Part shown: one piece after another, positions 1 to 16,944 of the stretch
Numbering within the stretch: position 1 is the first letter of the stretch
How the letters are laid out: the number at the start of each line of letters is the position of its first letter
IMG/VR virus record: IMGVR_UViG_3300037400_005963
Location: 64,001-128,000 of that record
From: a virus
Taxonomy: Duplodnaviria; Caudoviricetes
DNA: 64,000 nt
Strand: one strand, 5' to 3'
Position numbers and translations under genes: made by a program
Notes under the pieces: generated by a model
Seen by the model: the letters and a program-made list of their open reading frames with translations, nothing else
Told to the model about the DNA's origin: nothing
Database searches by the model: none

Positions 1-597
1 ATTGTCCTCATCTTCTAGTTTTTCAATCTTAAGATCACCTACTTTTGCAGTTTCCTCTGATTCAATTACCTCAGAGAAAATTCTTTCGCAGAACTCCTGA
101 TCACTAAAGATCTTGCTAACTACAGCATTGTTTGTTATTACGCTAAACTCTCTCTCCTCATCCTGATGTTCTTCATCAGTTTCAACAATAGACTTCTCAT
201 GACCTGCTTCAGGATTGAGACCGCCGCATTCTAGATTAGGAGAAATAACGCAACCTTCTTTGAAATGGTCTTCTACATGTTCGTCAGGAGCACCAACCTG
301 ATTACCCTCATGAACTCCATCCTCTGACGGGTGAAGGAACTTTTCCAGTTGTTCATCCGGAACAGCGATCAAGTCATAGGTATCAGCTTCGTCAGTAGCC
401 TTCTGAGCAATAGTAACTTCACCATTTTCCTTGTCGGTAATAGCAACATCGCCATTGTCGTTAGCTCTTTCATATCTTACTTCTTCGGTATCAACTACGC
501 CATTTTTCTGTGCATTCTTGATATCGTTATCTACTTGATTAGCCAGTTCTTCGTCTTTATTCGAGAACATGACTTCCATAAATCTTGTTAAAGCCAT
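1..597 (-). CDS. Acidic prohead scaffold/core-like protein (runs off the window edge; absent from the ORF track)
   Basis: Open frame from ATG 597 to base 1 (MALTRFMEVMFSNKDEELANQ...), very D/E-rich, with REFS/KIFS/RIFS motifs; lies downstream of the protease in the head operon. Confidence 0.6.
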   Translation of the reverse strand, partial: MALTRFMEVMFSNKDEELANQVDNDIKNAQKNGVVDTEEVRYERANDNGDVAITDKENGEVTIAQKATDEADTYDLIAVPDEQLEKFLHPSEDGVHEGNQVGAPDEHVEDHFKEGCVISPNLECGGLNPEAGHEKSIVETDEEHQDEEREFSVITNNAVVSKIFSDQEFCERIFSEVIESEETAKVGDLKIEKLEDEDN

Positions 598-599
598 TA

Positions 600-1400
600 T
601 TATTTATTAATTATTATTTGATTACCATTTAAAATAATTACACCATTATCTACCAAGATATCTATAATATTCTCGGGAGCATCTGGGTAACGATTTCTTA
701 AGATATCCATGAATTGCTTAATTCCCATACTCTTATTTCCATATTCATAATGAAGATCAGAAATAATACTAGAATCTTCAACCCACGAAGTATCACAGAA
801 CTGACTCTCACGTGGAATAATACCATGAGCTTTCTTAATTAAAATAATGCCCTTTTCTGGTATATTTCCTCCTGCTTCAAGTCGTTCAATTATATCGGGT
901 TTTGGATAATTTCCTTCAACAATATCTTTGTCTAAGTCCATTATCTTAGTAACCTGAACTATTAATTTAGAAAAAGTTTTTTCCATAGCATATGCAGATC
1001 CAGAAATTTCTACTTTATCTCCCTGCATATTAGCAAAACCCTTTTCTAACATATATTCAGATTTATCACTGAATGTTTTTTCAAATTCAGCTTTTGTCAT
1101 TGATTTGCCTGAAAATTCCTTAAGACTTTTCTCATAAGGGCTAAGGAAAATGCTAAACTCTCTTTCCTCTGTTCTAACTGGTTCTGGTACCTGTGGCTCC
1201 GAGTAAGGAATAAACTTAATCCTCATCCTTGTTCCTCCACAGTTTGGGCAAATCATGTGAGAAGGGTGTTCTGCACTTTCAACCTGTGCGCCGCAGTCTT
1301 GACAAATTAAAGTTCTCAACTGCATTCCCTCTTCCCCATTTCTTTCCTCGGAGAATAATTTCTTTCGAGGAGTTGTACTAAATAATTTCAATCTTTTCAT
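600..1400 (-). CDS. Zn-ribbon head-associated protein with six [KR]xFS motifs
   Basis: CQDC...CPNC; KLFS x2, REFS, KEFS, KTFS x2; overlaps the protease stop. Confidence 0.55.
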   Translation of the reverse strand: MKRLKLFSTTPRKKLFSEERNGEEGMQLRTLICQDCGAQVESAEHPSHMICPNCGGTRMRIKFIPYSEPQVPEPVRTEEREFSIFLSPYEKSLKEFSGKSMTKAEFEKTFSDKSEYMLEKGFANMQGDKVEISGSAYAMEKTFSKLIVQVTKIMDLDKDIVEGNYPKPDIIERLEAGGNIPEKGIILIKKAHGIIPRESQFCDTSWVEDSSIISDLHYEYGNKSMGIKQFMDILRNRYPDAPENIIDILVDNGVIILNGNQIIINK

Positions 1401-2656
1401 TCCTTTCCTTCCTCCTCGTTTTCAATGTTTTCTTCTACATCCAAGTTTTCAGGCATGGGTGAAGATCCAAATACTTCATCCACCATTGATTGTGTAAATT
1501 CTGTATATGCCTCTTGAAGTTTCTTCATGCGCATAGGACTGAGATAACCTTTTTTATTTATCTCAATCATTGCCATCTTATAGGGAATCTGCAACTTCTG
1601 GGCTGCTACTCTCACCTGTTTTCCTAAAGAACTGCCACCAATTAAAACATTGATTTGCTTTCCATTAGTTACATCACTAGTAATCTGTTTAAAAATATCC
1701 AAACAGTCAGATGTAAACATGGATTTTAAAATCCTAAGTTCTTCTGGATCCATTCTCTCTTGACCACCTAATTGTTTAACTAATTGTTTGTAGTCTAAGA
1801 AAAGACGACGGAATCTCATTCTTGGTGAGAATTTAGCAAAACGAAGTCTTTCTCTAACTGTTGCAGCAGAGAAGGTCTTTTCTTCCTCCACCTTCTCATC
1901 CGATACTTCCCCAATGAATTCTGCGCTACTATTTGCACTAAATTCCTTTGCTTTAAGGATTGTATATTTTCCTTCTATCTTACTCGACTTAGCAATATCC
2001 TGTACACCGAACTGAGAGAGATCTGAGAAAGTTTTAACCTTCATTCCTTCATATTTAACATCTTCATTTCCCTCAGAAAAAGTCCTAACTCGGTCCTCTA
2101 CATCGGCGATCAAGTTACCTTCATCATCCTCAACAGAAACAACCTGAGCTTTCTTCCAAGAAGGATTAAGAGTTAAATCGAATCCCTTTAGGTTTACCAT
2201 TTTCTTAAGAATATCTCCATTTGTTGTACTATCCCAATATCCTAAGATAACAGCAGAACATCCAATTAAGCAACCACTTGAGAGAAGTCCCTTGAGACGC
2301 TTAATATTCTCTGCTGCTTGAGTATCAAAATTCTTTTCATCTAAAGTTTTAGCATAAGCGTACAACCAACCATCACTACCACATTCAAGACCAGTGACAT
2401 AGTGAGTTGGAGCAGCTTCGCCAACAATTATCATCAAATCATCCTTTCCGACCGTCTTCGATACTGCCGGATTAAGATTTTTCGTACCTGTTCCCACGTT
2501 TCTAGGATAATGACTCATAGTACCAAGCATAGAATGAGAAGCTATGGCATTTTTATAAGTCTCTGTTGCCATAAATTGCTCAACTATCTCTCGGCTTATC
2601 CTACTAGAATCACTTGCGGGTTCATTAAACGAAAGAAGTTTTACTTTAAATTGCAT
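1397..2656 (-). CDS. Prohead (capsid maturation) protease, T4 gp21-like, with C-terminal extension
   Basis: LGTMSHYP, THYVTGL, IGCSAV and FDLTLNPS match gp21-family motifs (LGELxHP, SH, GVSSR, DxVxxPS); position downstream of portal. Confidence 0.8.
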   Translation of the reverse strand: MQFKVKLLSFNEPASDSSRISREIVEQFMATETYKNAIASHSMLGTMSHYPRNVGTGTKNLNPAVSKTVGKDDLMIIVGEAAPTHYVTGLECGSDGWLYAYAKTLDEKNFDTQAAENIKRLKGLLSSGCLIGCSAVILGYWDSTTNGDILKKMVNLKGFDLTLNPSWKKAQVVSVEDDEGNLIADVEDRVRTFSEGNEDVKYEGMKVKTFSDLSQFGVQDIAKSSKIEGKYTILKAKEFSANSSAEFIGEVSDEKVEEEKTFSAATVRERLRFAKFSPRMRFRRLFLDYKQLVKQLGGQERMDPEELRILKSMFTSDCLDIFKQITSDVTNGKQINVLIGGSSLGKQVRVAAQKLQIPYKMAMIEINKKGYLSPMRMKKLQEAYTEFTQSMVDEVFGSSPMPENLDVEENIENEEEGKE

Positions 2657-2793
2657 ATCTTTGTATGAATTATATCATTAAACAACCTGACTGCTAAGTA
2701 CTATATTTAGTCTTAATCTCGCTAGCCAGTAAATCTTTTTTATTTTGGTTCTATATTCTCCAAAGTCAAGGGGAATATAGAAAACTTTTAATG

Positions 2794-3234
2794 CTAAACT
2801 CTTTTCAATAAGCCTTGTGCAAGTGTCGATAATTTCGACTTTTGAAATACGGGTGCATTCGCCCGGACTGCATCAAGCTTGTTTTTTGCTCTATTCTCTA
2901 GCTGTTTTCTAGTTAAACCTAGTTTTTTTAAATTCCTCTGCCTCAAATTTTGTATTTGATATCTAGATTTTCCAGCTCCAGCATTTTCCAAACCTCTTTG
3001 TGCAATCCACCTTGATTGTTGTATATCACCCTTAATTAAATTGTCATTACTACGAAGACCTCCTTTAGATATCGTTTTATAAAAATCATTAGTAGCTTTT
3101 TGCTCACCACTAGCTATTTCCCGTACAGTAAAACGCGTATCCGGACTTTGTGCTAATACCCCAAGGGTTTTCCCCGGTTTATTTCTCATACGAGTTGCAG
3201 CGTTGCTAAATTCCTTATTTCTTAATATTATCAT
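2794..3234 (-). CDS. Basic putative internal head protein (tag MIILRNKEFS)
   Basis: Shared N-terminal motif, K/R-rich, in head operon. Confidence 0.6.
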   Translation of the reverse strand: MIILRNKEFSNAATRMRNKPGKTLGVLAQSPDTRFTVREIASGEQKATNDFYKTISKGGLRSNDNLIKGDIQQSRWIAQRGLENAGAGKSRYQIQNLRQRNLKKLGLTRKQLENRAKNKLDAVRANAPVFQKSKLSTLAQGLLKRV

Positions 3235-3368
3235 ATTTTTAATACCCCTCCTCTAAAGGAAATATCGGGGTGTTTTTATTATTAAACGTTTTATTTCATT
3301 GGATATCTCCCTCTCATTAAAGAGAGAAACTTTAAATTATAGTTTCGGGAGATATATAAACAAGAATA

Positions 3369-3893
3369 TTATCTTGCTTGGTTATGTCTGTACCATTTCT
3401 TCTTGAACTCGTCCTTAGACATTTCACCATCAAGCATAGCGAGACGATCAGCCTTTCTTGCATAGTAATCGTCATAAGTACCGCCGCCACCAGACTTGCG
3501 AATCTTATTTCTAAGTGCTCTGGCACCACGATCACCAAAATAGCCAGCAGCTGTACCTGCAGCAGCACCGCCCATAGCACCAAGAGCTGCACCAGACTTG
3601 CCACCAAGCGCGTGACCAATGATACCGCCATGTACTGCACCAACAGCGCCAGTAATACCACCACGAATTTTTGATGATAATTTACCTTTGCCCTTTTCTT
3701 TTGAAAGATGCTCACGACGTGCTTTACGAAGTTTCTTAATAGTGAGTGGGTTCTTATCTTTTACGTTTGCAATAAGATCTGAATAGTTCAATCCCTCGTA
3801 GTTATCTACAGAGTCTTTCTTTGTGGTAGAAAATAATCTCTCCTCACCATTCTCATCAAGAGCAACACTAAAAACTTTTCTTCTAATATACAT
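3369..3893 (-). CDS. Basic glycine-zipper protein, putative internal head protein (tag MYIRRKVFS...RLFS)
   Basis: GxxxG run GGITGAVGAVHGGIIGHALGG...; first 23 aa nearly identical to 3918..4352. Confidence 0.65.
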   Translation of the reverse strand: MYIRRKVFSVALDENGEERLFSTTKKDSVDNYEGLNYSDLIANVKDKNPLTIKKLRKARREHLSKEKGKGKLSSKIRGGITGAVGAVHGGIIGHALGGKSGAALGAMGGAAAGTAAGYFGDRGARALRNKIRKSGGGGTYDDYYARKADRLAMLDGEMSKDEFKKKWYRHNQAR

Positions 3894-3917
3894 AATTGAT
3901 TTGTTTAGTGGTTTAAA

Positions 3918-4352
3918 TTATTTCTTAAAAACTTTTCTAACGCCCTTCATGATCTTATCGGCAGGCTTTTGGAGACTCTTACCTTGACGCAACATCTTAC
4001 CTGCATCCTTAGAAACATTTTTCATCTTACCAGCAACCTTCAATGCTTTTTCCGCTAATTTAGGGTTGGTCTGAATTTCCTCAAGACGTGCTAATTCTTT
4101 AGAGGTCATACCCTTGACATCACGGTTCAGTAAATTAATAGCCTCACCTAATTGTTGTTTCTTAGCACCGATTTTCTTAGCTCCAGCAATACCAGCTGCG
4201 CCTACACCTGCAAGAGCTCCGGTAGCGATAGCAGCTTTCTTTCCCTTAGGAAGATCCTTCTTCTCTTTAGTAACTACTTCATTTGTAGAAAATAATCTTT
4301 CTTCACCATTCTCGTCAAGAGCAATACTGAAAACTTTTCTTCTAATATACAT
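3918..4352 (-). CDS. Basic putative internal head protein with one Gly/Ala hydrophobic helix (tag MYIRRKVFS...RLFS)
   Basis: AAIATGALAGVGAAGIAGA; leader duplicated with 3369..3893. Confidence 0.65.
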   Translation of the reverse strand: MYIRRKVFSIALDENGEERLFSTNEVVTKEKKDLPKGKKAAIATGALAGVGAAGIAGAKKIGAKKQQLGEAINLLNRDVKGMTSKELARLEEIQTNPKLAEKALKVAGKMKNVSKDAGKMLRQGKSLQKPADKIMKGVRKVFKK

Positions 4353-4454
4353 ATTAAATACACTGTTTAGTTGGGATCTTTTTGTTATATAAATTAAATC
4401 ATTTAGACCCTTATCCCAACTAAATTAAATCTATAATAGAGCCTAAATGAAAAA

Positions 4455-4919
4455 TTATCTTAAATTACTATTTACATTACTTCTTGGCATTCCAACAGGT
4501 TGAATTGCTTTTGGACGAGTTTTATATAAAGAGGTATTTTTAACACCTGCCTCGTTATTATTTCTATTCTCTTCCTTTCTTGCTTGAATTCTTGCTCTAT
4601 TTTGAGCATCCTTCTCTTCCTGCTCCATCTTTTGCATCTGAACCATACTCCTTCGTCTAGATATTTCATCCTTAAGTAGAAGCTGAGACTTTTGATGCTG
4701 AATTTCAATCTGTTGTCGTCTGAGCCTAGCCTGCTCTAACTGAAGGTCTCTCATAGTTAGTTCACCATTGTTGGTATCCCCAACCATTTGCATTTGCTGA
4801 GGATTATTAACTTGAGTAAGAGATGGATTCTTCTGTTGAGCCTGAGCCATCATCGACTGTTCTTGAACAGTTCCTGGGAGAGTATTAACGGCAAATAATT
4901 TACTTCTCTTTATTAACAT
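4455..4919 (-). CDS. Q-rich coiled-coil protein (tag MLIKRSKLFA)
   Basis: ORF track; shared N-terminal motif. Confidence 0.6.
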   Translation of the reverse strand: MLIKRSKLFAVNTLPGTVQEQSMMAQAQQKNPSLTQVNNPQQMQMVGDTNNGELTMRDLQLEQARLRRQQIEIQHQKSQLLLKDEISRRRSMVQMQKMEQEEKDAQNRARIQARKEENRNNNEAGVKNTSLYKTRPKAIQPVGMPRSNVNSNLR

Positions 4920-5190
4920 CCTCTTTTTCCTCCTTTAATCTCTTTTTGAGTTTATGATGAGCATAAGAAGAGACACCTGCCACGCCTAAACCTGCTAGAG
5001 CTGCTGGACCGAGAACTTTATTATGGTGAAGAGTTTTTGTATTTCCCTTAGATTTTAAATACAAATTCATTAGATGCGCTCCACCTGCTATCCCTCCGGT
5101 TGCATACCCGGCAGTTTCAAGGTTTCTAGTTAAATCGAGAAGTTCTTCCCTTCTTTCCCTCTGTTTCTCTTTATCTCTCTTTGTTATCAT
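4900..5190 (-). CDS. Small basic protein with two Gly/Ala hydrophobic segments
   Basis: ORF overlapping the portal stop; degenerate MITKR tag. Confidence 0.55.
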   Translation of the reverse strand: MITKRDKEKQRERREELLDLTRNLETAGYATGGIAGGAHLMNLYLKSKGNTKTLHHNKVLGPAALAGLGVAGVSSYAHHKLKKRLKEEKEDVNKEK

Positions 5191-6875
5191 ATACGTTCTT
5201 CTTCATTTGGTGGAATTAACGTGCTAGGATCAATTCCCTGTTGTTCGCACATTGCACTAAATTTCGCCTGAGCAAAATTAGAGTACATTGTTATAGTTTC
5301 ATCGGTTATCATAGATTCCGTGTTTGGATCGATATCTTTTATTAATCCTTGAATATAACCTAAAAATGATTTTGGATCAATTAAAGGAGTAGCTGCCTCC
5401 ATAACTTGAAGTGCGTTAGTTAAGATACCAGAGATTCCATTAACAAGACCTGATATTGATTCGCTCTGATTGATTTGATTGTTATACTCAACACTAGTTT
5501 TCTCTGATATATGAAGCTGAACACGACCTGGATCTAAATCATCATTATAGAGAATTTTATAAAGATTAATCACCAAATCCTGAACCGACTCTTTTATACC
5601 TACCATAAAACCAGTCACCCTAGAATTAGCTCGTTCTGACTGTTGAAGAATTTGCCATTTCGAACCACTAGTAGAATCAAGTATAGTAGCAGGTATTCCT
5701 AAAGGACTAAGAACCGCAGCTCTACAATTATCAAGAGACTGCATTATATCTAAAAGCTTGTCCGATAATTTGTCTAAGGGAAGCATCGAATTCTTATTTC
5801 CCATAGTTGCATTATAGTCGGGTACAAACTTAGCGGATTGAGATAATGCATTCTCAATAAAAGAGATTGCATCAAACTGGCTTGTTAAGAAAGAGGCTAG
5901 TTCATTTGTATTATTTGCTAACTTAGTAGTTCGAGCACATAGTTCCTTTGCTGTTTCCAAGGGAACTGATTTATCGAACTGAAGTAGAAATAGTTGCGTT
6001 GAACTAAGATCACGAAGAGAAATAAGTGATACTAAGAGCTCTTTTATAATTAACTCTTTTACTTTTAATATTAATGAGTAAAATAAAGGTTCTCCAGCAC
6101 TATATGAATGCTGACTAAGTACTTTTTTTCTATTCGAATTATCTTCCTTCTTTCCAAAAGTCGGCTTTATCTTCTTATCTTGCTTGTTCTTTTCATCCAA
6201 ATCATTAATCAGACGAAGACTGTTTGATCCTAAATTGAAAGCTTCCTCTCTGGGGATTTCATAAATTTTTCCATCTTCTCCCCTGGCTAGGTAAGACTCC
6301 TCCATTTCACCATCTTTATTCCTAGTCTTCTTAGTGACAACAGAAACAGGATCATATAATTCTTCTAATCTAAACTTAAGATGCCCCAGTTCATCTCTCG
6401 ACTTCAAAAGCATCCCAGAGTATTGACCATAGAACACCATCTCTTTTACGTGATCTCTAATATAGGTCAATATATTTAGGTCTTTTATTAAGATCTCATT
6501 AATTCTTTCCGTCTTAGCTTCATCCTGATTGCCTTCCTCATCAACTATTGTAATTAACTGTTTTCCATTATCCTCTAAGAAATTAATTACATAATCAGTA
6601 AAGAAATTAGTGGCTAGCTTAACAACATCTAATAATTGATAACCCTTTAATTCATCAACTCTCTCATAATAGAGGGATAAGAGGTTCGAGGGAGAAGATG
6701 AACCTAATAGTGGACTTCTTCTGTTACCTTGTCCCCACTTTCCCGCTCCACCTGTAGAACCTATCTGAGAGTATCCACCAGATCCACGAAATATGTTAGA
6801 CCTAAGTGGGACTCTGGATGCCCCTACTGCGAAAGAGCCGAATATTTTTTGAAATATTCCTTCACTTTTCTTCAT
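5187..6875 (-). CDS. Portal protein
   Basis: 562 aa between terminase and protease; portal-like segments (KEMVFYG, LYDPVSV, AVLSPLGIPATIL); assigned mainly from size and synteny. Confidence 0.7.
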   Translation of the reverse strand: MKKSEGIFQKIFGSFAVGASRVPLRSNIFRGSGGYSQIGSTGGAGKWGQGNRRSPLLGSSSPSNLLSLYYERVDELKGYQLLDVVKLATNFFTDYVINFLEDNGKQLITIVDEEGNQDEAKTERINEILIKDLNILTYIRDHVKEMVFYGQYSGMLLKSRDELGHLKFRLEELYDPVSVVTKKTRNKDGEMEESYLARGEDGKIYEIPREEAFNLGSNSLRLINDLDEKNKQDKKIKPTFGKKEDNSNRKKVLSQHSYSAGEPLFYSLILKVKELIIKELLVSLISLRDLSSTQLFLLQFDKSVPLETAKELCARTTKLANNTNELASFLTSQFDAISFIENALSQSAKFVPDYNATMGNKNSMLPLDKLSDKLLDIMQSLDNCRAAVLSPLGIPATILDSTSGSKWQILQQSERANSRVTGFMVGIKESVQDLVINLYKILYNDDLDPGRVQLHISEKTSVEYNNQINQSESISGLVNGISGILTNALQVMEAATPLIDPKSFLGYIQGLIKDIDPNTESMITDETITMYSNFAQAKFSAMCEQQGIDPSTLIPPNEEERI

Positions 6876-6964
6876 AAATTTTCAGTATATATTTTACATT
6901 TAGATATCTCCCCCTCATTAAAGAAATAGTCTCTCAGGACAGGGAGAATATAGTTTATTTTTTG

Positions 6965-7075
6965 TTATTTTCCAAACTCACTGAGTCTCTTCTTAGCGTC
7001 TTCAGCAATTTTCTCTTTTGTCTTGAAATCCTCCACTTCTTCCGTGAAAGTTTTCTCTTTTAATTTTCCACACAT
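6965..7075 (-). CDS. 36-aa protein (MCGKLKEKTFTEEV...)
   Basis: Small ORF read by eye, A-rich start context, carries KTFT. Confidence 0.4.
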   Translation of the reverse strand: MCGKLKEKTFTEEVEDFKTKEKIAEDAKKRLSEFGK

Positions 7076-7154
7076 ATCTTTAAAACTTTATTTATTAGTT
7101 TCTGGATCCCCATTTAAGGGAGAACTCTAAGAGCTCGTCCAGAATTTTCTTTAA

Positions 7155-7412
7155 TTAGCCCTTTGCATATACAAAAGAAAGGATAATTAAAAGGCTAACT
7201 ACAATACCAACAGCTGAGTAAATTACACTACCCCAACTGAACTTAGCCTGTGGGTTTCTGGCATCTGCAATGATATCAGCAACTTCTGCTGAAATGCCAC
7301 TACCCAAAACAGCTACGATACCACCTGCAAGGCCGCCACCAGTATGAAAACCAATTACGCCCCAAAACAGGGTAAGTACGAAAAATACAAGTGCTCTTAA
7401 AATTCCGCTCAT
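7155..7412 (-). CDS. Small multi-pass membrane protein (holin-like topology)
   Basis: Two to three hydrophobic helices in 85 aa; function not established. Confidence 0.5.
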   Translation of the reverse strand: MSGILRALVFFVLTLFWGVIGFHTGGGLAGGIVAVLGSGISAEVADIIADARNPQAKFSWGSVIYSAVGIVVSLLIILSFVYAKG

Positions 7413-7421
7413 AACTTAAAA

Positions 7422-7628
7422 TTATTTATTATTATTAAATTTATTAGCATGATAAGCCGCCAAAGCTTTCTCTGCACTTTCCTTGCTAGAATACTTTGGT
7501 TGCCACCACAGCTTTCTATCTATTGCAATAATTCCCCAATTTCCATCGGGTCTTTTTTGAACTACCCCATCATTTTTTGCCTTTTCGAGATCCTCTTTGC
7601 TGACGGGAAGCCTTCTTTTTACTAACAT
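7422..7628 (-). CDS. Hypothetical protein
   Basis: ORF track; MLVKRR start resembles the shared tag. Confidence 0.5.
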   Translation of the reverse strand: MLVKRRLPVSKEDLEKAKNDGVVQKRPDGNWGIIAIDRKLWWQPKYSSKESAEKALAAYHANKFNNNK

Positions 7629-8088
7629 ATTTACTATTTAATAATCTGGCACCATCTATGTACCCTTTAACAACAGTTCTAAATCGATGGGTTGATTTTC
7701 TCAACACATCATCACTCTCAAGCTTATTATTAAGATCTTCAATAGGAGAAATTACTTTATCATCTACTACCTGAATACTTTTTACATATGTATTTCCTAA
7801 AACAGGCTGATATGAGAAAGTTTTAGACATTCTGCTCATCCTGTTAGCTGCCATGGTAGCAAGTCTATTCTCTTTTGTAAGATCACCCATAGGAATAGTG
7901 CTATTCAAATTGCCCGTGCTACTAGTAATATCTGGTGCAGGAGGAATTTTGGGACCTCCGCCAGAGGTAGTATTTATGGCGGCAGCATTAGAGGAATTTT
8001 CCTTTGGGGGAGTTGTTTTCATATTTCCCTTTTCAAAATCCGAAGCAGCCGTTGTAACAGTAAATATCTTTCTCCTTTTTATAATCAT
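7570..8088 (-). CDS. Putative internal head protein (tag MIIKRRKIFT, internal KTFS)
   Basis: Shared N-terminal motif. Confidence 0.55.
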   Translation of the reverse strand: MIIKRRKIFTVTTAASDFEKGNMKTTPPKENSSNAAAINTTSGGGPKIPPAPDITSSTGNLNSTIPMGDLTKENRLATMAANRMSRMSKTFSYQPVLGNTYVKSIQVVDDKVISPIEDLNNKLESDDVLRKSTHRFRTVVKGYIDGARLLNSKYVSKKKASRQQRGSRKGKK

Positions 8089-8663
8089 AGCTCTTTATCT
8101 CTATTCTTTTTATATTTTCGCGCAGCAAGAGTTAAACCAGTGCCGGCAGCAGCTATTGCTAAACCAGTCGGAGCTACTTTTTTCAATTTACTAGCTCTTC
8201 TACTTTCCAGAGTCTTAAAATTTTTCTTAAGATTATCTTCTAAGCCTTGAATATACCCAGCTCTTTGTCCATCTGCCTCAGCCTTCTTTTTTAAGAAGTC
8301 GTTGACTAATCTTCTCCTCTTAAAACCTTTAAAGATTCCTTTAGTATTCTGAAGACTTTCATTTAAATTATTACTTTCTTGAAGTATATTCTTGACGTAA
8401 TTATTTTCGTTTTTTCTTAGTGCATTTGTAGCTTCCTGAACTAGTTTGTTCTTCTTTCGCTGCATCCTTGAATTAACTAAGGCTGTCTTTCCAGTATAAT
8501 ATCCCCCAGCCGCTAAAGCTGTTGCACCAAGTCCAGCCGCAGTCATTTCATTAGTTCTTCTCTTTCTCTTCTTTTGCTCTTCGTAAGGAATATAAGACTT
8601 TCCTAACTCTGCGAGCTTAGTTTCGGAAGTATTAGAATAACTTTTTCGTCTTAACGTTATCAT
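8085..8663 (-). CDS. Basic protein with two Gly/Ala hydrophobic helices (tag MITLRRKSYS)
   Basis: Start moved to the Met giving the shared tag; AAGLGATALAAGG and GLAIAAAGTGL. Confidence 0.6.
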   Translation of the reverse strand: MITLRRKSYSNTSETKLAELGKSYIPYEEQKKRKRRTNEMTAAGLGATALAAGGYYTGKTALVNSRMQRKKNKLVQEATNALRKNENNYVKNILQESNNLNESLQNTKGIFKGFKRRRLVNDFLKKKAEADGQRAGYIQGLEDNLKKNFKTLESRRASKLKKVAPTGLAIAAAGTGLTLAARKYKKNRDKEL

Positions 8664-8723
8664 ATTTATCAATGTAAAGTTTAACGGCTATTTCACTTAC
8701 AATAAAGTAAGATGAAATAGAGA

Positions 8724-9029
8724 TTAATTTTTATTTTCTTTTTTCTTACTAATAAAGTGATTAGCAAGTGCGGCACCTGTACCTATTGCAGCAAGACCAA
8801 TACCTGCATTTCGACCAACCTTTATATTTCGTTTAAGGATCTCTGGACTAATCTTTCCAGCCTTTGCTAAATTCAGGGCAGTCTTCTTAGACGTGTGATA
8901 CATTGATAGTCCGCCTAATCCAGCAGCTCCTACGTAACCTGCAGTTTTGAGGTTTCTCTTTGTGTTTTGCGATAGTCCCTTTTTCTCTTCTTCTCCTAAT
9001 GCAAAACACTTATTTCTTAATACTATCAT
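8724..9029 (-). CDS. Basic protein with two Gly/Ala hydrophobic helices (tag MIVLRNKCFA)
   Basis: Shared N-terminal motif. Confidence 0.6.
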   Translation of the reverse strand: MIVLRNKCFALGEEEKKGLSQNTKRNLKTAGYVGAAGLGGLSMYHTSKKTALNLAKAGKISPEILKRNIKVGRNAGIGLAAIGTGAALANHFISKKKENKN

Positions 9030-9040
9030 TTCTTTTTATT

Positions 9041-10918
9041 TTAAAATATACTTTCTAACATACTCTGAATCGCCTGACCTGATTCTTCTCTGGCTGAACG
9101 ATATAAAGAATTAATAGCAGATAACTGTTTCTTAACACCACCGCCACCTTCTTCTAAGTATTCAGAATATTTCTCATAACAGGCCCAGAGAGAACCAACC
9201 ACTGCATCTGCTATATCTTTTGTACCTGGTTTTTCACCAACTCGATCAGAATAATCAAACTCAAATGAAGAGCTAAATTCTGGATGGTCGATTTTTATGT
9301 GAGACCCATCTTTTCCATTCGACACTATTTTAAGTTCAGAACATTCACGCAAGAGAGTTTTATTATATACCATAGTAGCTCTCTCTGAATTCACAATATT
9401 CTTAAACATAAAATAAGGTTCAGTTGTTTTATCAACGGAAATCACTTTATACTTTATACCCGCTCTTTCACAGCTCTGGAATAAACCGGCGCTAGCAAAA
9501 CCATCGGCACTGACATGAATATCATAATCAAGCGAAAGTCTCTGAACTAACTGGAATAAGTGGTCAAGTGAGGTTTTCTGTCCATCTTTTCTACTTAGAC
9601 CTAAGATAATAGGGAATCTAAATTTAGGGTAAGGTGTTTTATCAAACTTATCCTTACTAATTACTTCCCCATCGTAATGACAGATACTAATACCCGTTAT
9701 ATCCTTCACTAGACCAATATCGAAGTGAATAAATAACGTCAATCCCTTTGGCACACGGAATAGCATGTGTGATATTCTATTATACAGACTATCGGATAGG
9801 TCAAAGAAATCGATGTCCTTTATAATGTCATCACATAAATTAGGAATGGTACAACAATTAACGAGATGAGATATCGAACCGTTGAAGAAGAGTTCCTTCC
9901 CTGAATATGGAAAACCGGCCAAGTCTTGAAGTGACCTAACTGGATCTAACATGAAGTTTCTCTTAACCTGAATTGGACAACTAATTATTCTATCCTTATC
10001 AAGTTCTTTCCTATCTTCTTCCTCTTCGATGACATGCGGAGATCTAACCGAATCACCACGATAGAAATCAAAAGTTAATCCTTCGCTCTCATTATATAGT
10101 TCAGGTCTAGCTACCCAATGTGAAAATTTAGCAAGGAACAATTCATCCTCGGGAACAGCCTCTTCAAATTTATCCGCCACCGAATGATCTGCATCTTTCG
10201 CCGACGAGTCAAGTACCACCGATCCAAAAGTAAAACGTTTGGCAATGAAACGAGATTGATAACGGATCAGAGTTTCACTCATCTTAGACATCGCATCGGA
10301 AGGTTTCCAGAATCCAATCTCACTTAGAACTGAGAAGATTAGCTGAGTACCTATGACGCTACCCACTGCCTTAGGGCCGCTTGAGATAAATCGAATAGCG
10401 GGATTATGATATAAATTCTTAAAATAAGGACTAACATCAAAAATTCCCCTAAAATACTGAACAAAGTCTTTATGAGCCGTTTGTTCATTAGCATGGAAGA
10501 AACCAAATGCCAACTTAACACCACCTGCCAAACCAAGAGATCTAAGACAATCAACACAACAATCAAGTCTATGATAAGTATAAAGACCCATTAATTTTGC
10601 CATAGTTGATTTACCAGATCCAATACAACCACCAAATGACACATATGGAGTTTTTGTTGTAATAGGAGTTGGGTAAATTTCTTTTCCACAGTCTTTCCAA
10701 ATTTGAAAGATTGATTTCCCCTGATTTGTTATTTGTGGTGAACCTAGAAAATAGTCATCACATAAGAATTGTTCAAATGTACAAGGGAGATGATCCATTC
10801 CTAGAAGTTTTGCACCCACTAAGAGTTTTTCACTCTCAGTTAACTTTGTATATTGTGCCTTTATATTCATAGACCCCAAGGACTTTGTAGGGTCCGTGTG
10901 ATCTACAAAATTATTCAT
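9041..10918 (-). CDS. terL: Terminase large subunit
   Basis: Walker A GCIGSGKS; Walker B-like FSVLSE; motif III VLDSS; nuclease IHFDIG and KDIADAV. Confidence 0.85.
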   Translation of the reverse strand: MNNFVDHTDPTKSLGSMNIKAQYTKLTESEKLLVGAKLLGMDHLPCTFEQFLCDDYFLGSPQITNQGKSIFQIWKDCGKEIYPTPITTKTPYVSFGGCIGSGKSTMAKLMGLYTYHRLDCCVDCLRSLGLAGGVKLAFGFFHANEQTAHKDFVQYFRGIFDVSPYFKNLYHNPAIRFISSGPKAVGSVIGTQLIFSVLSEIGFWKPSDAMSKMSETLIRYQSRFIAKRFTFGSVVLDSSAKDADHSVADKFEEAVPEDELFLAKFSHWVARPELYNESEGLTFDFYRGDSVRSPHVIEEEEDRKELDKDRIISCPIQVKRNFMLDPVRSLQDLAGFPYSGKELFFNGSISHLVNCCTIPNLCDDIIKDIDFFDLSDSLYNRISHMLFRVPKGLTLFIHFDIGLVKDITGISICHYDGEVISKDKFDKTPYPKFRFPIILGLSRKDGQKTSLDHLFQLVQRLSLDYDIHVSADGFASAGLFQSCERAGIKYKVISVDKTTEPYFMFKNIVNSERATMVYNKTLLRECSELKIVSNGKDGSHIKIDHPEFSSSFEFDYSDRVGEKPGTKDIADAVVGSLWACYEKYSEYLEEGGGGVKKQLSAINSLYRSAREESGQAIQSMLESIF

Positions 10919-10924
10919 ATTTTC

Positions 10925-11308
10925 TTAAACTACACTATTTAATACACTTTCTCGTATTGCCTTTTTTGCCTTTGCTGAATTTTCTAGCAAGTTTTCCCTA
11001 CAGCGTCTTCTGTGATAGGCTAAATCTTGGGGTCTCATATTCAAAAATCCATGGATTGGCCCTAAAATACGTCTACCCGAATGTATCTTTCCTTCCAAAA
11101 CTCCCTCAGTAAAAGGAAGACGATAAGAAGATTTTATAGCCTTTACATTCCCCTTTCTCCAAAGAAACTCTGTTCTATTTACCATGTCATTATCTAGTCC
11201 CCTTAACTGAACTGCAAGATATCTTCGTTTATCTCTTAGTGCTTTTTGTTGAGCAGGAGTTAATCCCCTGTAGTCAGCAAAAGTAAATAATTTTCTCTTT
11301 ACTATCAT
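10925..11308 (-). CDS. Basic putative internal head protein (tag MIVKRKLFT)
   Basis: Shared motif; weakly similar to 13928..14242. Confidence 0.6.
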   Translation of the reverse strand: MIVKRKLFTFADYRGLTPAQQKALRDKRRYLAVQLRGLDNDMVNRTEFLWRKGNVKAIKSSYRLPFTEGVLEGKIHSGRRILGPIHGFLNMRPQDLAYHRRRCRENLLENSAKAKKAIRESVLNSVV

Positions 11309-11352
11309 AATATATTATTCAAATAAATAAGTCCTAAAACTCCCAAATTTTA

Positions 11353-13143
11353 TCATCTACGGTATGGAATTCGTGGATCAGCATACGAGGGATAATATGA
11401 AGAATATGGATAATTATATCTCAAATACCTTGTAATATCCATAACATATGGTGAATGAGAAAGTCTATTAGATAATAATGGGGCATTTCTTAATTGACGA
11501 CCGCCCCCCATATTAGATCTCGGAGGCCTTGTTTTAATTAAATTTATTAATCGATTAGTAAGCGCATAATCATGACGTCTATCTCCAGTATTAGGATTAT
11601 AGTAACGATTACCGTTAGGATTGCCATATAATCTAGTATTAATTTCCGGCGCAATCCACCTATAAGGAGAAAGATTCATGGCGCCTTTAAGATCTGCATA
11701 ATTCATTGTCAGATAGGCAGAAACCATATTACTACTACCAGCCTTAGGGGCAGAGTTCACGTATTTATGATACCAACCCTTACTTTTGTCTAACAAATTA
11801 AGCGATTCATTAGAGGCCCATTCCCTTGTCCAAGTTTTTGGTTTAAGATTGGCGGCCTTATTCATTTCATGAGCTAGTCTCGGATAATGAATAAGTGGTC
11901 TCGATACGTATTTTTTGAGCGGCTCACGAACATACGGAGTTACAATTTTATTAGTAAAAGGTTGAGCTATTTTTTCCTCAAACAGACCTTTGCCACTATT
12001 TATATATGTCGATCCTTTGCTAGCTAGGTTAGTTACCGTAGGTCTTACTCCACTCGTTAATCCTCGAGCACCAGCTTCCGCATAAAGATATGGCTTTACA
12101 ACAAGCTTATCAACGCCCTTGTTGAACGCGTTCTTTGCATAATTAGTAGCAGCACCGGGAAGACGGGTTAGGATTGCCGCTTGAGCCGGATTTAAAAATT
12201 TTCCAAATTGGGTAGATATCTTACCACCTATATACTTTCTTGCTTGATTAGTATATTTACTAACATATCCACCTGTAGCATCAATGATAGATCCTATTCC
12301 ACTATTTATTTTACTGAATGTATTAGGTGCAATACTATTTCCTAGATAACGCATAGTATTTCCTGTCTGCTTCCAAGCCCATTTACCAAACTTTGGGCCA
12401 AGAATATCAGCCAGGCCTGTTACAGTAGCATCTTTTGCAAATCCGGATAATCCAGTGTCTACTTTTATCTCCTTCATTTCAGAGAGAGACGTATCATTTA
12501 ATATATTACTAAGATACTTTGCCATTTCACGATCAGTGGCTGACCAAGTAGACTGACGCTTTCTCAGATCCGACAAATCTTTGCTTGCCTGTGTTCTAAT
12601 ATTCTCTCTCCACCAATTTTCTCTTTTATCGTAATTAACTCCACGTGTATTATTATATAAATCTTTTCCCCAATGCCAGCCCAAACCAGCAGCAACAGAT
12701 TTTGAATTTTTTGACCAAACTGCTATATCTGCTAAAACATTGATACCCTTATTTGCATAATCAAGCATCGTATGCAAAAATCCCGGATCTTTATATTTAT
12801 TATAGGTCTGATAATATACACTGTTTAAAAGTCCTGCTTTTTTAAGAAGATCCATATTTACCTTCTGATTGGGACTAAATAACTTAGGAGTAGGTACCGC
12901 CGGAGATGATGAACTCGTAGGAAGTTTCAAAGCCCCCCGATTCTTTCCAGGAGTGTTAAAAACAACTTTATTTGTTTTTGGATCTATGTAATAAATCGGG
13001 TTTTGGGGCGCAGCTTTTTTTCTATTCCAAGGTAAATAAGGATTATTGTTGAAACTATTTCTACTGTTATTCATCAGTTGGGCATTTTTCCAAGCCTGAG
13101 TACCTGGGATCGCCCACCCATAAGGATTTCTTGGAACTGCCAT
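11353..13143 (-). CDS. Large, very basic N/P/Y/K-rich protein, possibly virion-internal
   Basis: 596-aa ORF, few acidic residues, no Cys. Confidence 0.5.
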   Translation of the reverse strand: MAVPRNPYGWAIPGTQAWKNAQLMNNSRNSFNNNPYLPWNRKKAAPQNPIYYIDPKTNKVVFNTPGKNRGALKLPTSSSSPAVPTPKLFSPNQKVNMDLLKKAGLLNSVYYQTYNKYKDPGFLHTMLDYANKGINVLADIAVWSKNSKSVAAGLGWHWGKDLYNNTRGVNYDKRENWWRENIRTQASKDLSDLRKRQSTWSATDREMAKYLSNILNDTSLSEMKEIKVDTGLSGFAKDATVTGLADILGPKFGKWAWKQTGNTMRYLGNSIAPNTFSKINSGIGSIIDATGGYVSKYTNQARKYIGGKISTQFGKFLNPAQAAILTRLPGAATNYAKNAFNKGVDKLVVKPYLYAEAGARGLTSGVRPTVTNLASKGSTYINSGKGLFEEKIAQPFTNKIVTPYVREPLKKYVSRPLIHYPRLAHEMNKAANLKPKTWTREWASNESLNLLDKSKGWYHKYVNSAPKAGSSNMVSAYLTMNYADLKGAMNLSPYRWIAPEINTRLYGNPNGNRYYNPNTGDRRHDYALTNRLINLIKTRPPRSNMGGGRQLRNAPLLSNRLSHSPYVMDITRYLRYNYPYSSYYPSYADPRIPYRR

Positions 13144-13144
13144 A

Positions 13145-13840
13145 TTAACTATTCTCCTTTCTAAATAATTTCATAAACTCATCTATGGTTCTTTGTGCAT
13201 CGGGATCACCAAGATCGACATCAGTTTCATCCTCTGCTATTTTCTTTAATTCTAGACTATCACCAGTTATTTCTATTTCATTCTTCAATTGACTAAGTTG
13301 ATCAATATACTGAATTAACTTCTCAACTACTATGAAATAATCTGCACTAGATAATCCTTCATTTCCAAATAATCTCTGTGGATCTAATACCCAATCGATG
13401 GTAAGGGATAGTTTTTGAATTAAATGAAGATATAAGATGGGTTTTATTGATTTATATAGTTTCGATACATATAATTCAAGAATTCGGCGAGATTTATCAT
13501 CACTAACTAGGACTAAGGATTTTGATAAGTCCTGGAGATTTAAATGAAGATTAAGGCCGTATTCTTTATTGTAATTTGATAAAACTTGATTCAATGAATT
13601 TTCCATCTCTTTAACTTTAAGAGATGTTTGATTCTTTGCTATTGCACTCGCATCTAAGATCATATTCTTAGCAGCACTAGGAAGAATTGGTGCTCCAGTG
13701 ACTATTGATTTTAACTCGCCGGGATCCATTTCCTCTACTACTGCATCATCTATATAATCACCTTGGACATCAACCTTCCCTTCTTTTTGAAGCAGTTCCT
13801 TTTTAAATTCAGGATCTGCAAAAGGATTGATTGCTTCCAT
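13145..13840 (-). CDS. Acidic helical protein, possible terminase small subunit
   Basis: ORF is solid; function guessed only from position upstream of terL. Confidence 0.35.
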   Translation of the reverse strand: MEAINPFADPEFKKELLQKEGKVDVQGDYIDDAVVEEMDPGELKSIVTGAPILPSAAKNMILDASAIAKNQTSLKVKEMENSLNQVLSNYNKEYGLNLHLNLQDLSKSLVLVSDDKSRRILELYVSKLYKSIKPILYLHLIQKLSLTIDWVLDPQRLFGNEGLSSADYFIVVEKLIQYIDQLSQLKNEIEITGDSLELKKIAEDETDVDLGDPDAQRTIDEFMKLFRKENS

Positions 13841-13927
13841 ACACTTTAATAATTATTTTATATAATTAGACCTACCCCTCCCATTGAAAGGAAGTCCCAA
13901 AATTAGACGGGGAAGGTTATATATTGA

Positions 13928-14242
13928 TTAGCGCTTACTGTTTCTAAGTACTAGGTTTTTCAATCTAGTGAAACCTTTATTATATTTCTTTGCTATTGAT
14001 CTCTCAGCATCTTTTGCTAAGTTATCATAAAACATTTGAGATCTCCAAGCAGTATTTGCGCGATAATGTGAATCACCAACTTTTTTGGCAATTTGAGCAG
14101 TTTCATTAATGGCTTGTCTAGACTGATTTAAACCCTGTGCTAGATTATTTCTTCTAACCCTTAATTCCTCGGCAGCCTGATTTCCATACCTTTTCGCAAA
14201 ATCTCCATAATTGAAGAATAATTTATTTCTTAATACTATCAT
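13928..14242 (-). CDS. Basic putative internal head protein (tag MIVLRNKLFF)
   Basis: Shared N-terminal motif. Confidence 0.6.
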   Translation of the reverse strand: MIVLRNKLFFNYGDFAKRYGNQAAEELRVRRNNLAQGLNQSRQAINETAQIAKKVGDSHYRANTAWRSQMFYDNLAKDAERSIAKKYNKGFTRLKNLVLRNSKR

Positions 14243-14637
14243 ATTAATCCCTCCTGCAATGCTTGTCGTCTAGCAGCATTTAAACTTCTCTTATTTTGAA
14301 CAGCAATGGTATTTTTCCCCATTCCATCAACTACCTTACTTAATCCATTCTGTGTACCATTCTGGATATTTCTAGCAGCCTCTCGAATATTTTTTATAGT
14401 ATGTCTTGCTTGAACTCTATCTGCAATTCCCTCAATATTGTTTAATGAATTGCTTATATTTCTTTGACCGCCTCTTTTTAAACCAGCAACAACACCACGA
14501 AGACCCCTTCGACTACCTGGCTCTAATGCAGTTTGTTCTAGGGAAGGCAATAATTTAAGCCCATACTTTAGATTTGCTTTCTTTAATGCCCCTCTTCTAG
14601 CTGCACAGGTAAAATTTTTATTTCTCAGTATAATCAT
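14239..14637 (-). CDS. Basic putative internal head protein (tag MIILRNKNFT)
   Basis: Shared N-terminal motif; first gene of the operon. Confidence 0.6.
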   Translation of the reverse strand: MIILRNKNFTCAARRGALKKANLKYGLKLLPSLEQTALEPGSRRGLRGVVAGLKRGGQRNISNSLNNIEGIADRVQARHTIKNIREAARNIQNGTQNGLSKVVDGMGKNTIAVQNKRSLNAARRQALQEGLI

Positions 14638-15612: not shown

Positions 15613-16944
15613 ATGAGCAAAAAAACATCAACAAAGAAGAGTTATGTTTACTTGGCAGCAGAGGTAGATAAAAAAGGCAACCACATACACTACAAGATCG
15701 GTTGCTCTACCCAAGTAGAAAAGCGAGTAAATGGAAAAATCACGAGTGACAACGGGAATGACATCATCCTGTTGAAAAAGAAAGAAGGTGATCGCGAATT
15801 AGAGAGATACCTGATCTACACTCGATATAAAAAGTATCGAATCCACGGAGAATGGTTTTTACCAGATAAATTTATTTTCGCGGATTTTGATTCGGTCATC
15901 AAACCAGACGATGCAAAAGTTCTTATTGAGAATTATGAAAATGCACTGGACGAGAGTGGCCGAAGGCAGAAAGTTGAAAAAATTACTAAGATCTCCAAGA
16001 GAGAGATCAAGAAAGTGATGAAGAACTGCGGAGGATACACGTTGAAGCTTGAGGGCGGAGCACGTCATTTTATTGACATTAAGAAAGCCGTCAAGAATAA
16101 CGTTCCCCTGCTTACACCTTCATACAACCGCGTGCACGGTCCCGATCAACAGAGGACCGGCAAGAGTATAAGTCTGTATGGATCACAAGGTCCACTGATG
16201 GTTATTACGCCTATCATGGCGGATGCAGCCGGAATAGAATACAGACATTTTGATGGAACCAAGTGTTCCGCATCAGATAAGAAGACAGGTTTGGTCATCG
16301 TCGATGGTAATGGACGAGTAGATTACTTACTCAAAGTCCCATTTGAATATTGGCCAAAAACCTTAATCGCGAGCTTTCCTGTAGAAGATTGTTTGGGCTA
16401 TTACGATATTGCAAAAATAATTCAGGAAGTTAACGTAAACACGAAGCCCTGGCATACCGCAGATTATAATTTAATGAGAGCGATTGAAAGGGGCCCACAT
16501 CCGATGTTTGATTCAATCCAAGAAGCAAGAGCTAAAGGATATCCTTATAGCACAGCTTGTATAATCTATACGCTGAGGGATAATATTAAGAAGAGCACTA
16601 TTCTTGGAACGAAAGACAACGACGAACTTGCTGAAAACTATAAATACGCATTAATCGTCCACGAAGAGATGGTTAAGAAGTTTGGCGAGGGAAAAGACGG
16701 AGTGATTAAATCCATTAAGATATCTAAGTTAATTAGAGATCAATGGAATAAGTTTGTGGCATCTAGCGATGCCGATACAGCAACTAAGAGGATCTGTGAG
16801 TTCATAAGATCCATTTCTAAAGATGTAGTTGAGAGAATGCGAGAAGCAACTCCAACGACTACCAAGGAAGGGTTGAGAGTAACTCGAGATGAGGTACGTG
16901 AAAAAGAATTTTCGGTTGCCTTTGATATGTTCATTCATAAATAG
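15613..16944 (+). CDS. T5orf172-type GIY-YIG domain fused to a ParB/Srx-like domain
   Basis: YVYL...YKIGCS...VEKRV...LERYL...GEWF at the N-terminus; YNR...VIVDGNGR centrally. Confidence 0.7.
   Translation: MSKKTSTKKSYVYLAAEVDKKGNHIHYKIGCSTQVEKRVNGKITSDNGNDIILLKKKEGDRELERYLIYTRYKKYRIHGEWFLPDKFIFADFDSVIKPDDAKVLIENYENALDESGRRQKVEKITKISKREIKKVMKNCGGYTLKLEGGARHFIDIKKAVKNNVPLLTPSYNRVHGPDQQRTGKSISLYGSQGPLMVITPIMADAAGIEYRHFDGTKCSASDKKTGLVIVDGNGRVDYLLKVPFEYWPKTLIASFPVEDCLGYYDIAKIIQEVNVNTKPWHTADYNLMRAIERGPHPMFDSIQEARAKGYPYSTACIIYTLRDNIKKSTILGTKDNDELAENYKYALIVHEEMVKKFGEGKDGVIKSIKISKLIRDQWNKFVASSDADTATKRICEFIRSISKDVVERMREATPTTTKEGLRVTRDEVREKEFSVAFDMFIHK

Follow-up and report, generated by a model that had tools for sequence, protein, structure and literature searches.

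Shared N-terminal peptides on small basic proteins of an uncultured gut phage head module: a probable variant of the T4 capsid targeting and processing signal

The subject of this analysis is a set of short, similar N-terminal peptides, here called tags, that are found on otherwise mostly unrelated small proteins of an uncultured phage. The DNA analysed (the window) is 64 000 bp long and corresponds to bases 64001-128000 of a 156.5-kb uncultured virus record (IMG/VR record IMGVR_UViG_3300037400_005963), for which CheckV gives a completeness of 42 %. We consider it probable that the shared N-terminus serves in head assembly as a two-part signal like that of T4, one that combines targeting with cleavage by the phage's own gp21-type protease, and that the basic proteins that carry it are packaged as cargo. 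A first-pass annotation, made from the sequence alone, had proposed a capsid targeting sequence (CTS) like that of the T4 internal proteins (IPs). This is still the best-supported reading, by virtue of the presence of the same motif in scaffold-like proteins, the protease and the capsid protein, of a protease with the gp21 fold and of the small, basic cargo.

The N-terminal tag

Window bases 1-14637 are part of a long minus-strand block, as seen from the guanine-cytosine (GC) skew. Within it, ten minus-strand open reading frames (ORFs) that encode proteins of 101-192 aa start at an ATG at positions 3234, 3893, 4352, 4919, 8088, 8663, 9029, 11308, 14242 and 14637, and share the consensus M-[I/L/Y]-[I/V/T]-[L/K/R]-R-x-K-x-[F/Y]-[S/T/A] (Table 1). 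All of the N-termini and start positions quoted in the first-pass annotation were borne out. For the ORF starting at 8663, the ORF listing had chosen a TTG three codons upstream, and it is the ATG start that yields the tag. When a loose form of the tag pattern was applied to the whole window, these ten were found and the other 49 kb contained only three further matches, all in short junk frames (9-34 aa). The sequences that follow the tag are unrelated by BLAST, apart from the next 15 residues of the proteins starting at 3893 and 4352, which are common to both, and the earlier statement that they mostly differ is therefore correct.

The 70 nt upstream of the tagged starts show no mutual likeness, and the tag codons vary synonymously (Ile, ATT or ATA; Leu, CTG, TTA or CTA; Lys, AAA or AAG; Phe, TTT or TTC; Ser, AGC, AGT or TCT). 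This combination indicates that selection acts on the peptide and not on the DNA.

The count of about ten tagged proteins holds for the window. However, it is too low for the record, where the tagged genes extend upstream of the window and approximately 28 tagged ORFs, all on the virion strand, were found. Further tag classes, namely MIKFRQKEY-S/T, MA-I/T-YILKRK-x-F/Y-S/T and MLVKRTK-x-F-G, are found before the window. The classes vary with map position, with MIILRNK near the terminase and portal genes, and MIKFRQK and MATYxLKRK on the far side of the capsid gene, in the direction of the giant tail-region genes.

The tags are confined to the virion module. In the 156-kb record, [KR]-x-[FY]-[STAG] is present in the first 13 residues of 25 of the 67 structural-block ORFs, compared with 4 of the 125 ORFs elsewhere, and none of these 4 has the hydrophobic prefix. 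The motif is thus not as common in non-structural genes, which was one of the outcomes that the first-pass annotation had named as refuting its proposal, and the same is true of a complete relative (G001, see below).

Two genes on the minus strand, at 7422-7628 and 4900-5190, have tag-like starts (MLVKRR- and MITKRDK-, respectively) that lack the aromatic-Ser end. These may be decayed tags or members of a class that is not trimmed.

The motif as a candidate cleavage site

The end of the tag, [KR]-x-[FY]-S, is also found within proteins of the structural block. There are 60 occurrences in this block, compared with 20 ± 4.5 after shuffling of each protein, whereas outside it the 15 occurrences observed are close to the shuffled value (17.5 ± 4.1). 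No enrichment was seen for control motifs, among them [DE]-x-[FY]-S and [KR]-x-[LI]-S. The scaffold-like proteins, which are strongly acidic (pI 4.1-5.6), carry multiple copies (Table 1), and the predicted cuts would leave the acidic proteins as pieces of 10-150 residues. From its sequence, the smaller of them, the 266-aa zinc-ribbon protein, is a probable core protein that would be processed into fragments. In the probable capsid protein, the motif occurs twice, after residues 38 and 60; for comparison, T4 gp23 loses 65 residues (PMC9958956). Four [KR]-x-F-S sites, all at conserved positions, lie in the linker of the prohead protease (after residues 193, 210, 239 and 262). This linker is poorly conserved and has a low predicted local distance difference test (pLDDT) score, and the motif residues are invariant there while their surroundings vary. 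Distant homologues of the protease (E ~1e-40 to 1e-56) have 2-7 copies of the motif each; the protease family as a whole comprises roughly 230 clusters.

Among 191 distinct tags, collected from the record, the complete relative and 16 diverse loci, the residue following F/Y is S (54 %), T, G or A only. This restriction to small residues would be expected of a P1' position, which makes a cut between the aromatic and the small residue the most likely. Ser is preferred at P1' by SPN3US gp245. Herpesvirus assemblins cut between Ala and Ser.

Beyond the motif, tags and internal sites differ. The internal sites (n=46) have only P3, P1 and P1' in common and lie in a Glu-rich context (P10-P4). The tags, when aligned on the aromatic residue, read M-I-I/V-L/F/K-R/K-x-K-x-F/Y-S, with hydrophobic and basic residues at P9-P4. 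Over the 191 distinct tags, the modal propeptide lengths are 9 and 11, and P9-P5 are hydrophobic or basic. In T4, mutagenesis of the CTS located targeting in the N-terminal part of the ten residues and processing at the end (PMC9026906). By analogy, the tags described here fit the same division into a targeting part and a processing end.

Members of the MYIRRKVFS family carry additional [KR]-x-[FY]-S sites, from one to three depending on the relative, in an acidic spacer that comes after the tag.

The head protease

Pfam profiles did not recognize the protease encoded at 1397-2656, and its assignment to the gp21 family therefore rests on fold, catalytic triad and gene context. An AlphaFold2 (AF2) model made from a 24-sequence alignment has a pLDDT of 74, and the top three Foldseek matches to it are chains of T4 gp21 (5JBL). 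VIA comparison of the model with 5JBL gave a Z of 10.0 and a root mean square deviation of 2.9 Å for 133 residues aligned over model residues 1-164. Herpesvirus assemblins follow after T4 gp21 in the fold comparison (Z ~7). In an hhalign comparison with T4 gp21 (NC_000866; E 2.4e-4, probability 43 %), residues H49, S134 and D160 align with H85, S140 and D168 of gp21 (numbers counted from the hhalign alignment), which we take to be the catalytic residues of gp21. The three residues are invariant in the 24 homologues of the window protease. An H/S/D triad aligned to that of gp21 has likewise been described for SPN3US gp245 (PMC5694885). On the evidence of the model and the profile alignment, the protease is related to T4 gp21 in structure and probably also at the level of sequence profiles.

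In 'Jug'-type relatives (L036:10001-11575, L023-L055), the protease gene is in three in-frame pieces of 152, 217 and 58 codons, parted by two gaps of ~145-150 nt. This arrangement fits the small introns and the 'fragmented' prohead protease reported for 'Jug' phages (PMC12880540).

Properties of the tagged proteins

The median pI of the tagged proteins is 10.2, compared with 5.0 for the untagged structural proteins. The majority of tagged proteins contain at most one internal site and would therefore come through maturation nearly whole. Mildly hydrophobic, Gly/Ala-rich segments are present in four of the ten window cargo proteins, and the other six are purely hydrophilic. One of the four, the product of 3369-3893, scores as a glycine-zipper 2TM protein (PF05433, 26.3 bits against a cut-off of 24.2). 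This was the only match, and no enzyme domain was found, when Pfam and PHROG were searched with the ten window proteins and ten larger tagged proteins from the record and G001.

Proposed mechanism

The events that we propose are as follows. The small, strongly basic, partly Gly/Ala-rich tagged proteins would be built into the prohead together with the acidic scaffold, and the Met-Ile-Ile/Val-Leu-Arg part of the tag most likely tethers each protein to the assembling acidic core. The end of the tag, Lys/Arg-x-Phe/Tyr followed by Ser (or Thr, Ala or Gly), would be the site for the gp21-type prohead protease. The protease would chop the multi-site acidic proteins to small peptides that exit the head, and from the cargo it would take off only the tag of 8-11 residues. 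As only the tag would be lost, the mature basic proteins would stay with the DNA inside the head, and they may leave with the DNA at infection.

A more far-reaching version is also conceivable, although we regard it as tentative and are inclined to doubt it as a whole. In this version, the specificity of a gp21-family protease has shifted from the bond after Glu to that between an aromatic residue and Ser, the multi-class tags of the clade (MIILRNK-, MIKFRQK-, MATYxLKRK- and MYIRRKVFS-) load 25-30 fast-evolving basic or glycine-zipper proteins for delivery to Bacteroidales, the carriers are abundant gut jumbo phages and the nine-residue tag is portable.

Conservation in relatives

Related loci were fetched via the terminase (seven loci, 65-80 % identity) or via the protease (51 loci, 34-59 % identity). 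In 16 diverse loci (protease identity 34-59 %), 7-15 of the ~17-29 co-directional ORFs per 21 kb have the cut motif in the first 14 residues, a count that takes in portal, protease and scaffold homologues beside true tags. There are almost no such ORFs on the minus strand of these loci. G001 is a complete, terminally repeated 353-kb relative, and its 24 true tags are all on the same strand, in the interval 251.6-293.8 kb. Among its other ~400 genes, there are only 12 loose motif matches, without the prefix. With ~28 tags in the record and 24 in G001, the description of the system as larger than that of T4 is justified.

Where homologues of the cargo exist, the tags are more alike than the mature parts (92, 69, 58 and 53 % identity in the tag versus 44, 21, 45 and 30 %, respectively, in the mature part). 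For the family of the protein encoded at 3369-3893, these are mean pairwise identities among 24 homologues (92 % for the tag and 44 % for the remainder). For four of the ten cargo proteins, no homologue was present in the fetched loci. Judged by these comparisons, the cargo is a fast-changing repertoire, as are the IP genes of T-even phages.

In one relative (L006:5568-6230), the homologues of 4900-5190 (the upstream partner) and 4455-4919 form a single ORF, with K-T-F-T at the junction. In the window, the tag is found at this point, and a motif at the junction is what a cleavage site predicts. In the window, 4900-5190 and 4455-4919 overlap by 20 nt in different frames, and the fusion in the relative raises the question of whether the window pair also yields a single product.

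The clade includes the 'Jug' gut phages and is predicted to infect Bacteroides/Phocaeicola (PMC12880540). Neither tags nor proteomics nor N-terminal processing is mentioned in the paper that describes the 'Jug' clade (PMC12880540). The nearest cultured phages by terminase and capsid similarity, Escherichia coli phage IME392 and its kin, have neither such tags nor the motif in their head module, and there is consequently no cultured proxy at hand.

Comparison with known systems

The system most like this one is the CTS of T4, which is found on IPI, IPII, IPIII and Alt and is processed by gp21. In both, an N-terminal peptide of ~10 residues is carried by otherwise unrelated, mostly small basic proteins, and the end of the peptide is a protease cut motif at which the scaffold is also cut and the capsid protein trimmed (predicted here). 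A protease with the gp21 fold, the order of the head genes and a cargo set that varies between relatives are further points in common. However, T4 cuts at [LI]-x-Glu, whereas the site here is [KR]-x-[FY] followed by S/T/A/G, without Glu. The tags have no sequence likeness to the T4 tag, there are ~24-28 tagged genes per genome compared with a handful in T4, and there are several tag classes, some with tandem extra sites in an acidic spacer after the tag. As the tags lack the Glu-type cleavage site (P3 is K/R, P1 is F/Y and P1' is S/T/G/A), we regard the system as a variant, and not a member, of the T4-type CTS system. The first-pass annotation had called it independent, and this part of its proposal was not upheld. 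Both the relationship of the protease to gp21, in structure and probably in profile, and the T4 gene order (20-67-68-21-22-23) point to one and the same system that has diverged and acquired a different cut code.

Proteases of the gp21 family are also found in the jumbo phages phiKZ (gp175), 201phi2-1 and SPN3US (gp245). They have C-terminal self-processing sites, and many internal proteins are processed, with redundant sites inside the propeptides. These enzymes cut after Glu (S/A-x-E, A-x-E) and most of the propeptides are 111-254 residues long, whereas the tags described here are mostly 9 or 11 residues and the motif lacks Glu. The proteases of T4, phiKZ, 201phi2-1 and SPN3US all process themselves and cut scaffold and cargo in a like pattern, always after Glu (PMC5694885).

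The assemblins of herpesviruses (e.g. the human cytomegalovirus protease) share the fold, and Ser after the cut, as preferred here. However, they are enzymes of eukaryotic viruses, P1 is Ala and not aromatic, and there is no family of short N-terminal tags.

Several findings weigh against the interpretation of the tag as a T4-kind signal. Cleavage after Glu by all characterized gp21-family proteases (T4, phiKZ, 201phi2-1 and SPN3US; PMC5694885) makes the proposed specificity unprecedented in the family. The protease was not recognized in Pfam (all 24 homologues), PHROG or PDB sequence searches, and the hhalign probability is only 43 %. The protease has a K-L-F-S near its N-terminus that may not be a cut site, given that distant homologues have K-L-F-N/D instead and that a beta-strand is predicted at this position. 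Some tagged genes are near tail genes, and a destination outside the head is conceivable for those. Finally, apart from the glycine-zipper match, the cargo has no recognizable function in the Pfam and PHROG scans.

Alternative explanations

The alternative that fares best is that the tag is cut but does not target. In this case, the basic cargo would be drawn in by the charge of the acidic scaffold, and the hydrophobic and basic residues would merely aid the grip of the protease on a site close to a free N-terminus. The opposite charges of the cargo (strongly basic) and the scaffold-like proteins (pI 4.1-5.6) agree with this, as do the fusion in L006, which keeps only the four-residue motif and not the hydrophobic part, and the untagged 596-aa basic protein in the same block, which has one site after residue 89. 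However, removal of nine residues would have no evident purpose unless the peptide had acted before the cut. Furthermore, P9-P4 are conserved over the 191 distinct tags and are systematically unlike the internal sites, which are presumably cut without them, and in T4 a targeting part precedes the processing part (PMC9026906). We therefore consider a tag that serves cleavage only to be unlikely.

Less likely again is an address other than the head interior, such as the tail or baseplate, the cell membrane or a replication compartment. The shift of tag classes with map position, in some cases towards the giant tail-region genes, and the glycine-zipper or Gly/Ala-rich, membrane-like segments of several cargo proteins would suit such an address. 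However, the motif at the end of every tag class is also that of the scaffold, protease linker and capsid N-terminus, and a prohead protease is normally active only inside the prohead. The tags also lack a hydrophobic core of signal-peptide length.

Removal of the tag as a leader by a host or other non-head protease is very improbable. The Prp protease takes a leader off ribosomal protein L27 and the capsid and scaffold proteins of Staphylococcus aureus phage 80alpha, and the tags bear a superficial likeness to MLKLNLQFF'ASK, which is also nine residues with Phe at P1 and a small residue next (PMC9405229). However, Prp is a host cysteine protease without internal sites, the motif core is different and the (D/N)-L-Q-(F/L)-F core is missing from the tags. 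No Prp gene was found in the 156-kb record or in a Bacteroides thetaiotaomicron control genome; PF04327 (Prp) was detected only in the B. subtilis, T. maritima and L. lactis control genomes. Prp is known from Firmicutes, Fusobacteria, Synergistetes, Spirochaetes, Tenericutes and Thermotogae (PMC9405229), whereas the predicted hosts of the clade are Bacteroides/Phocaeicola (PMC12880540). A Prp or long-L27 leader, ML-x-x-(D/N)-L-Q-(F/L)-F'A-(S/H)-K-K, was accordingly rejected. The complete relatives do encode a ClpP-family protein, but in G001 its gene is 115 kb from the virion module, and given this map position ClpP is unlikely to be the processing enzyme. The dozens of internal sites in scaffold, protease and capsid fit head maturation and not a ribosomal protease.

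An RNA-level or translation-level feature, in which A/T-rich first codons (the tag codons are very A/T-rich) aid initiation in a host without Shine-Dalgarno pairing and the peptide is a by-product, is hardly credible, as it is ruled out by the free synonymous variation, with Ser encoded by both AGY and TCN, and is opposed by the lack of the tag in ~400 non-virion genes of the complete relative and the recurrence of the same four residues at conserved internal positions.

Organization of the head module

The tagged genes are found amid those for the terminase, portal and protease, as the first-pass annotation had stated, in a head module that includes all three. The order is portal, five small proteins, protease, 266-aa acidic zinc-ribbon protein, 982-aa acidic protein and a 473-aa probable capsid protein, the last with weak matches to annotated capsid proteins. 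This portal-small proteins-protease-scaffold-capsid order mirrors that of T4 genes 20-67-68-21-22-23 (NC_000866). The features are listed in Table 1.

Table 1. Genes of the virion block in the window. The arrow marks the predicted cut position
Coordinates	Strand	Length (aa)	Feature	Tag	Comments
1..597	-	982	Acidic scaffold-like protein		pI 4.1; 17 [KR]-x-[FY]-S sites; N-terminal 199 residues in window, rest before window
600..1400	-	266	Acidic zinc-ribbon protein		Six [KR]-x-F-S sites, two in first 16 residues
1397..2656	-	419	Prohead protease		gp21/assemblin-fold domain (residues 1-165), linker, C-terminal helical domain
2794..3234	-	146	Tagged ORF	MIILRNKEF↓S	pI 11.4; hydrophilic; no Pfam/PHROG match; no homologue in fetched loci
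3369..3893	-	174	Tagged ORF	MYIRRKVF↓S	Second site EERLF↓S 12 residues on; glycine-zipper 2TM segment
3918..4352	-	144	Tagged ORF	MYIRRKVF↓S	Second site; Gly/Ala-rich segment; otherwise diverged from 3369-3893
4455..4919	-	154	Tagged ORF	MLIKRSKLF↓A
4900..5190	-	96	Gly/Ala-rich small protein	MITKRDK	Degenerate tag without Phe-Ser
5187..6875	-	562	Portal protein		Fold search with low-confidence model
7570..8088	-	172	Tagged ORF	MIIKRRKIF↓T	pI 10.1 minus tag; one internal site, after residue 91
8085..8663	-	192	Tagged ORF	MITLRRKSY↓S	Net charge +24; Gly/Ala-rich C-terminal segment
8724..9029	-	101	Tagged ORF	MIVLRNKCF↓A	Gly/Ala-rich part has homology to internal regions of longer tagged proteins from relatives
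9041..10918	-	625	Large terminase subunit		25-28 % identity over ~90 % of length to annotated terminases
10925..11308	-	127	Tagged ORF	MIVKRKLF↓T	pI 10.8
11353..13143	-	596	Very basic protein		Net charge +51; no N-terminal tag; one site, after residue 89
13928..14242	-	104	Tagged ORF	MIVLRNKLF↓F	pI 10.5; odd residue after Phe
14239..14637	-	132	Tagged ORF	MIILRNKNF↓T	pI 11.6; first gene of minus-strand virion block

Pfam, PHROG and PDB sequence searches missed both the portal and the terminase, and hhalign found no match between the portal and T4 gp20. The AF2 model of the portal is poor (pLDDT 53). Nonetheless, its top Foldseek matches are almost all portals (P1, T4 gp20, G20c and HK97), and it is these best fold matches of a low-confidence model that identify the product of 5187-6875 as the portal. 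Residues 9-13 of this protein, Q-K-I-F-G in the window, are kept as Q/E-K-I/M/L-F-G in all relatives examined and, from this sequence conservation, may be a further cut site that removes ~12 residues.

The untagged 596-aa basic protein is possibly a cargo protein with a long propeptide. An acidic 231-aa protein is encoded at 13145-13840 (minus strand), two genes upstream of the terminase gene and separated from it by the genes for the 596-aa protein and the tagged protein at 10925-11308. It has N-P-F-S/A at residues 5-8, conserved in the window phage and relatives, which is like the cut motif with Asn at P3. An untagged 85-aa protein with two strongly hydrophobic segments, encoded amid the head genes at 7155-7412 (minus strand), has conserved counterparts in relatives, with 80 aa in L006 and in L007. 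Past the strand switch, the first plus-strand gene (15613-16944) encodes a 443-aa protein with a MUG113/T5orf172 domain.

Implications

The logic of the system is that of the T4 CTS. What is new here is the proposed cut code, with no Glu and an aromatic residue at P1, the number of tagged genes, the presence of several tag classes and the clade in which they are found. If the interpretation is correct, this would be the first cut code other than 'after Glu' in the T4/phiKZ family of head proteases, and about one in two genes of the head module would encode packaged cargo. The head-internal proteome of abundant, uncultured jumbo phages of the human and animal gut could then be read directly from sequence, and the cargo proteins would be candidates for roles in host take-over, DNA condensation or penetration of the envelope. 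The tag would also provide a short, natural means of directing proteins into capsids of this type, a use to which the T4 CTS has already been put.

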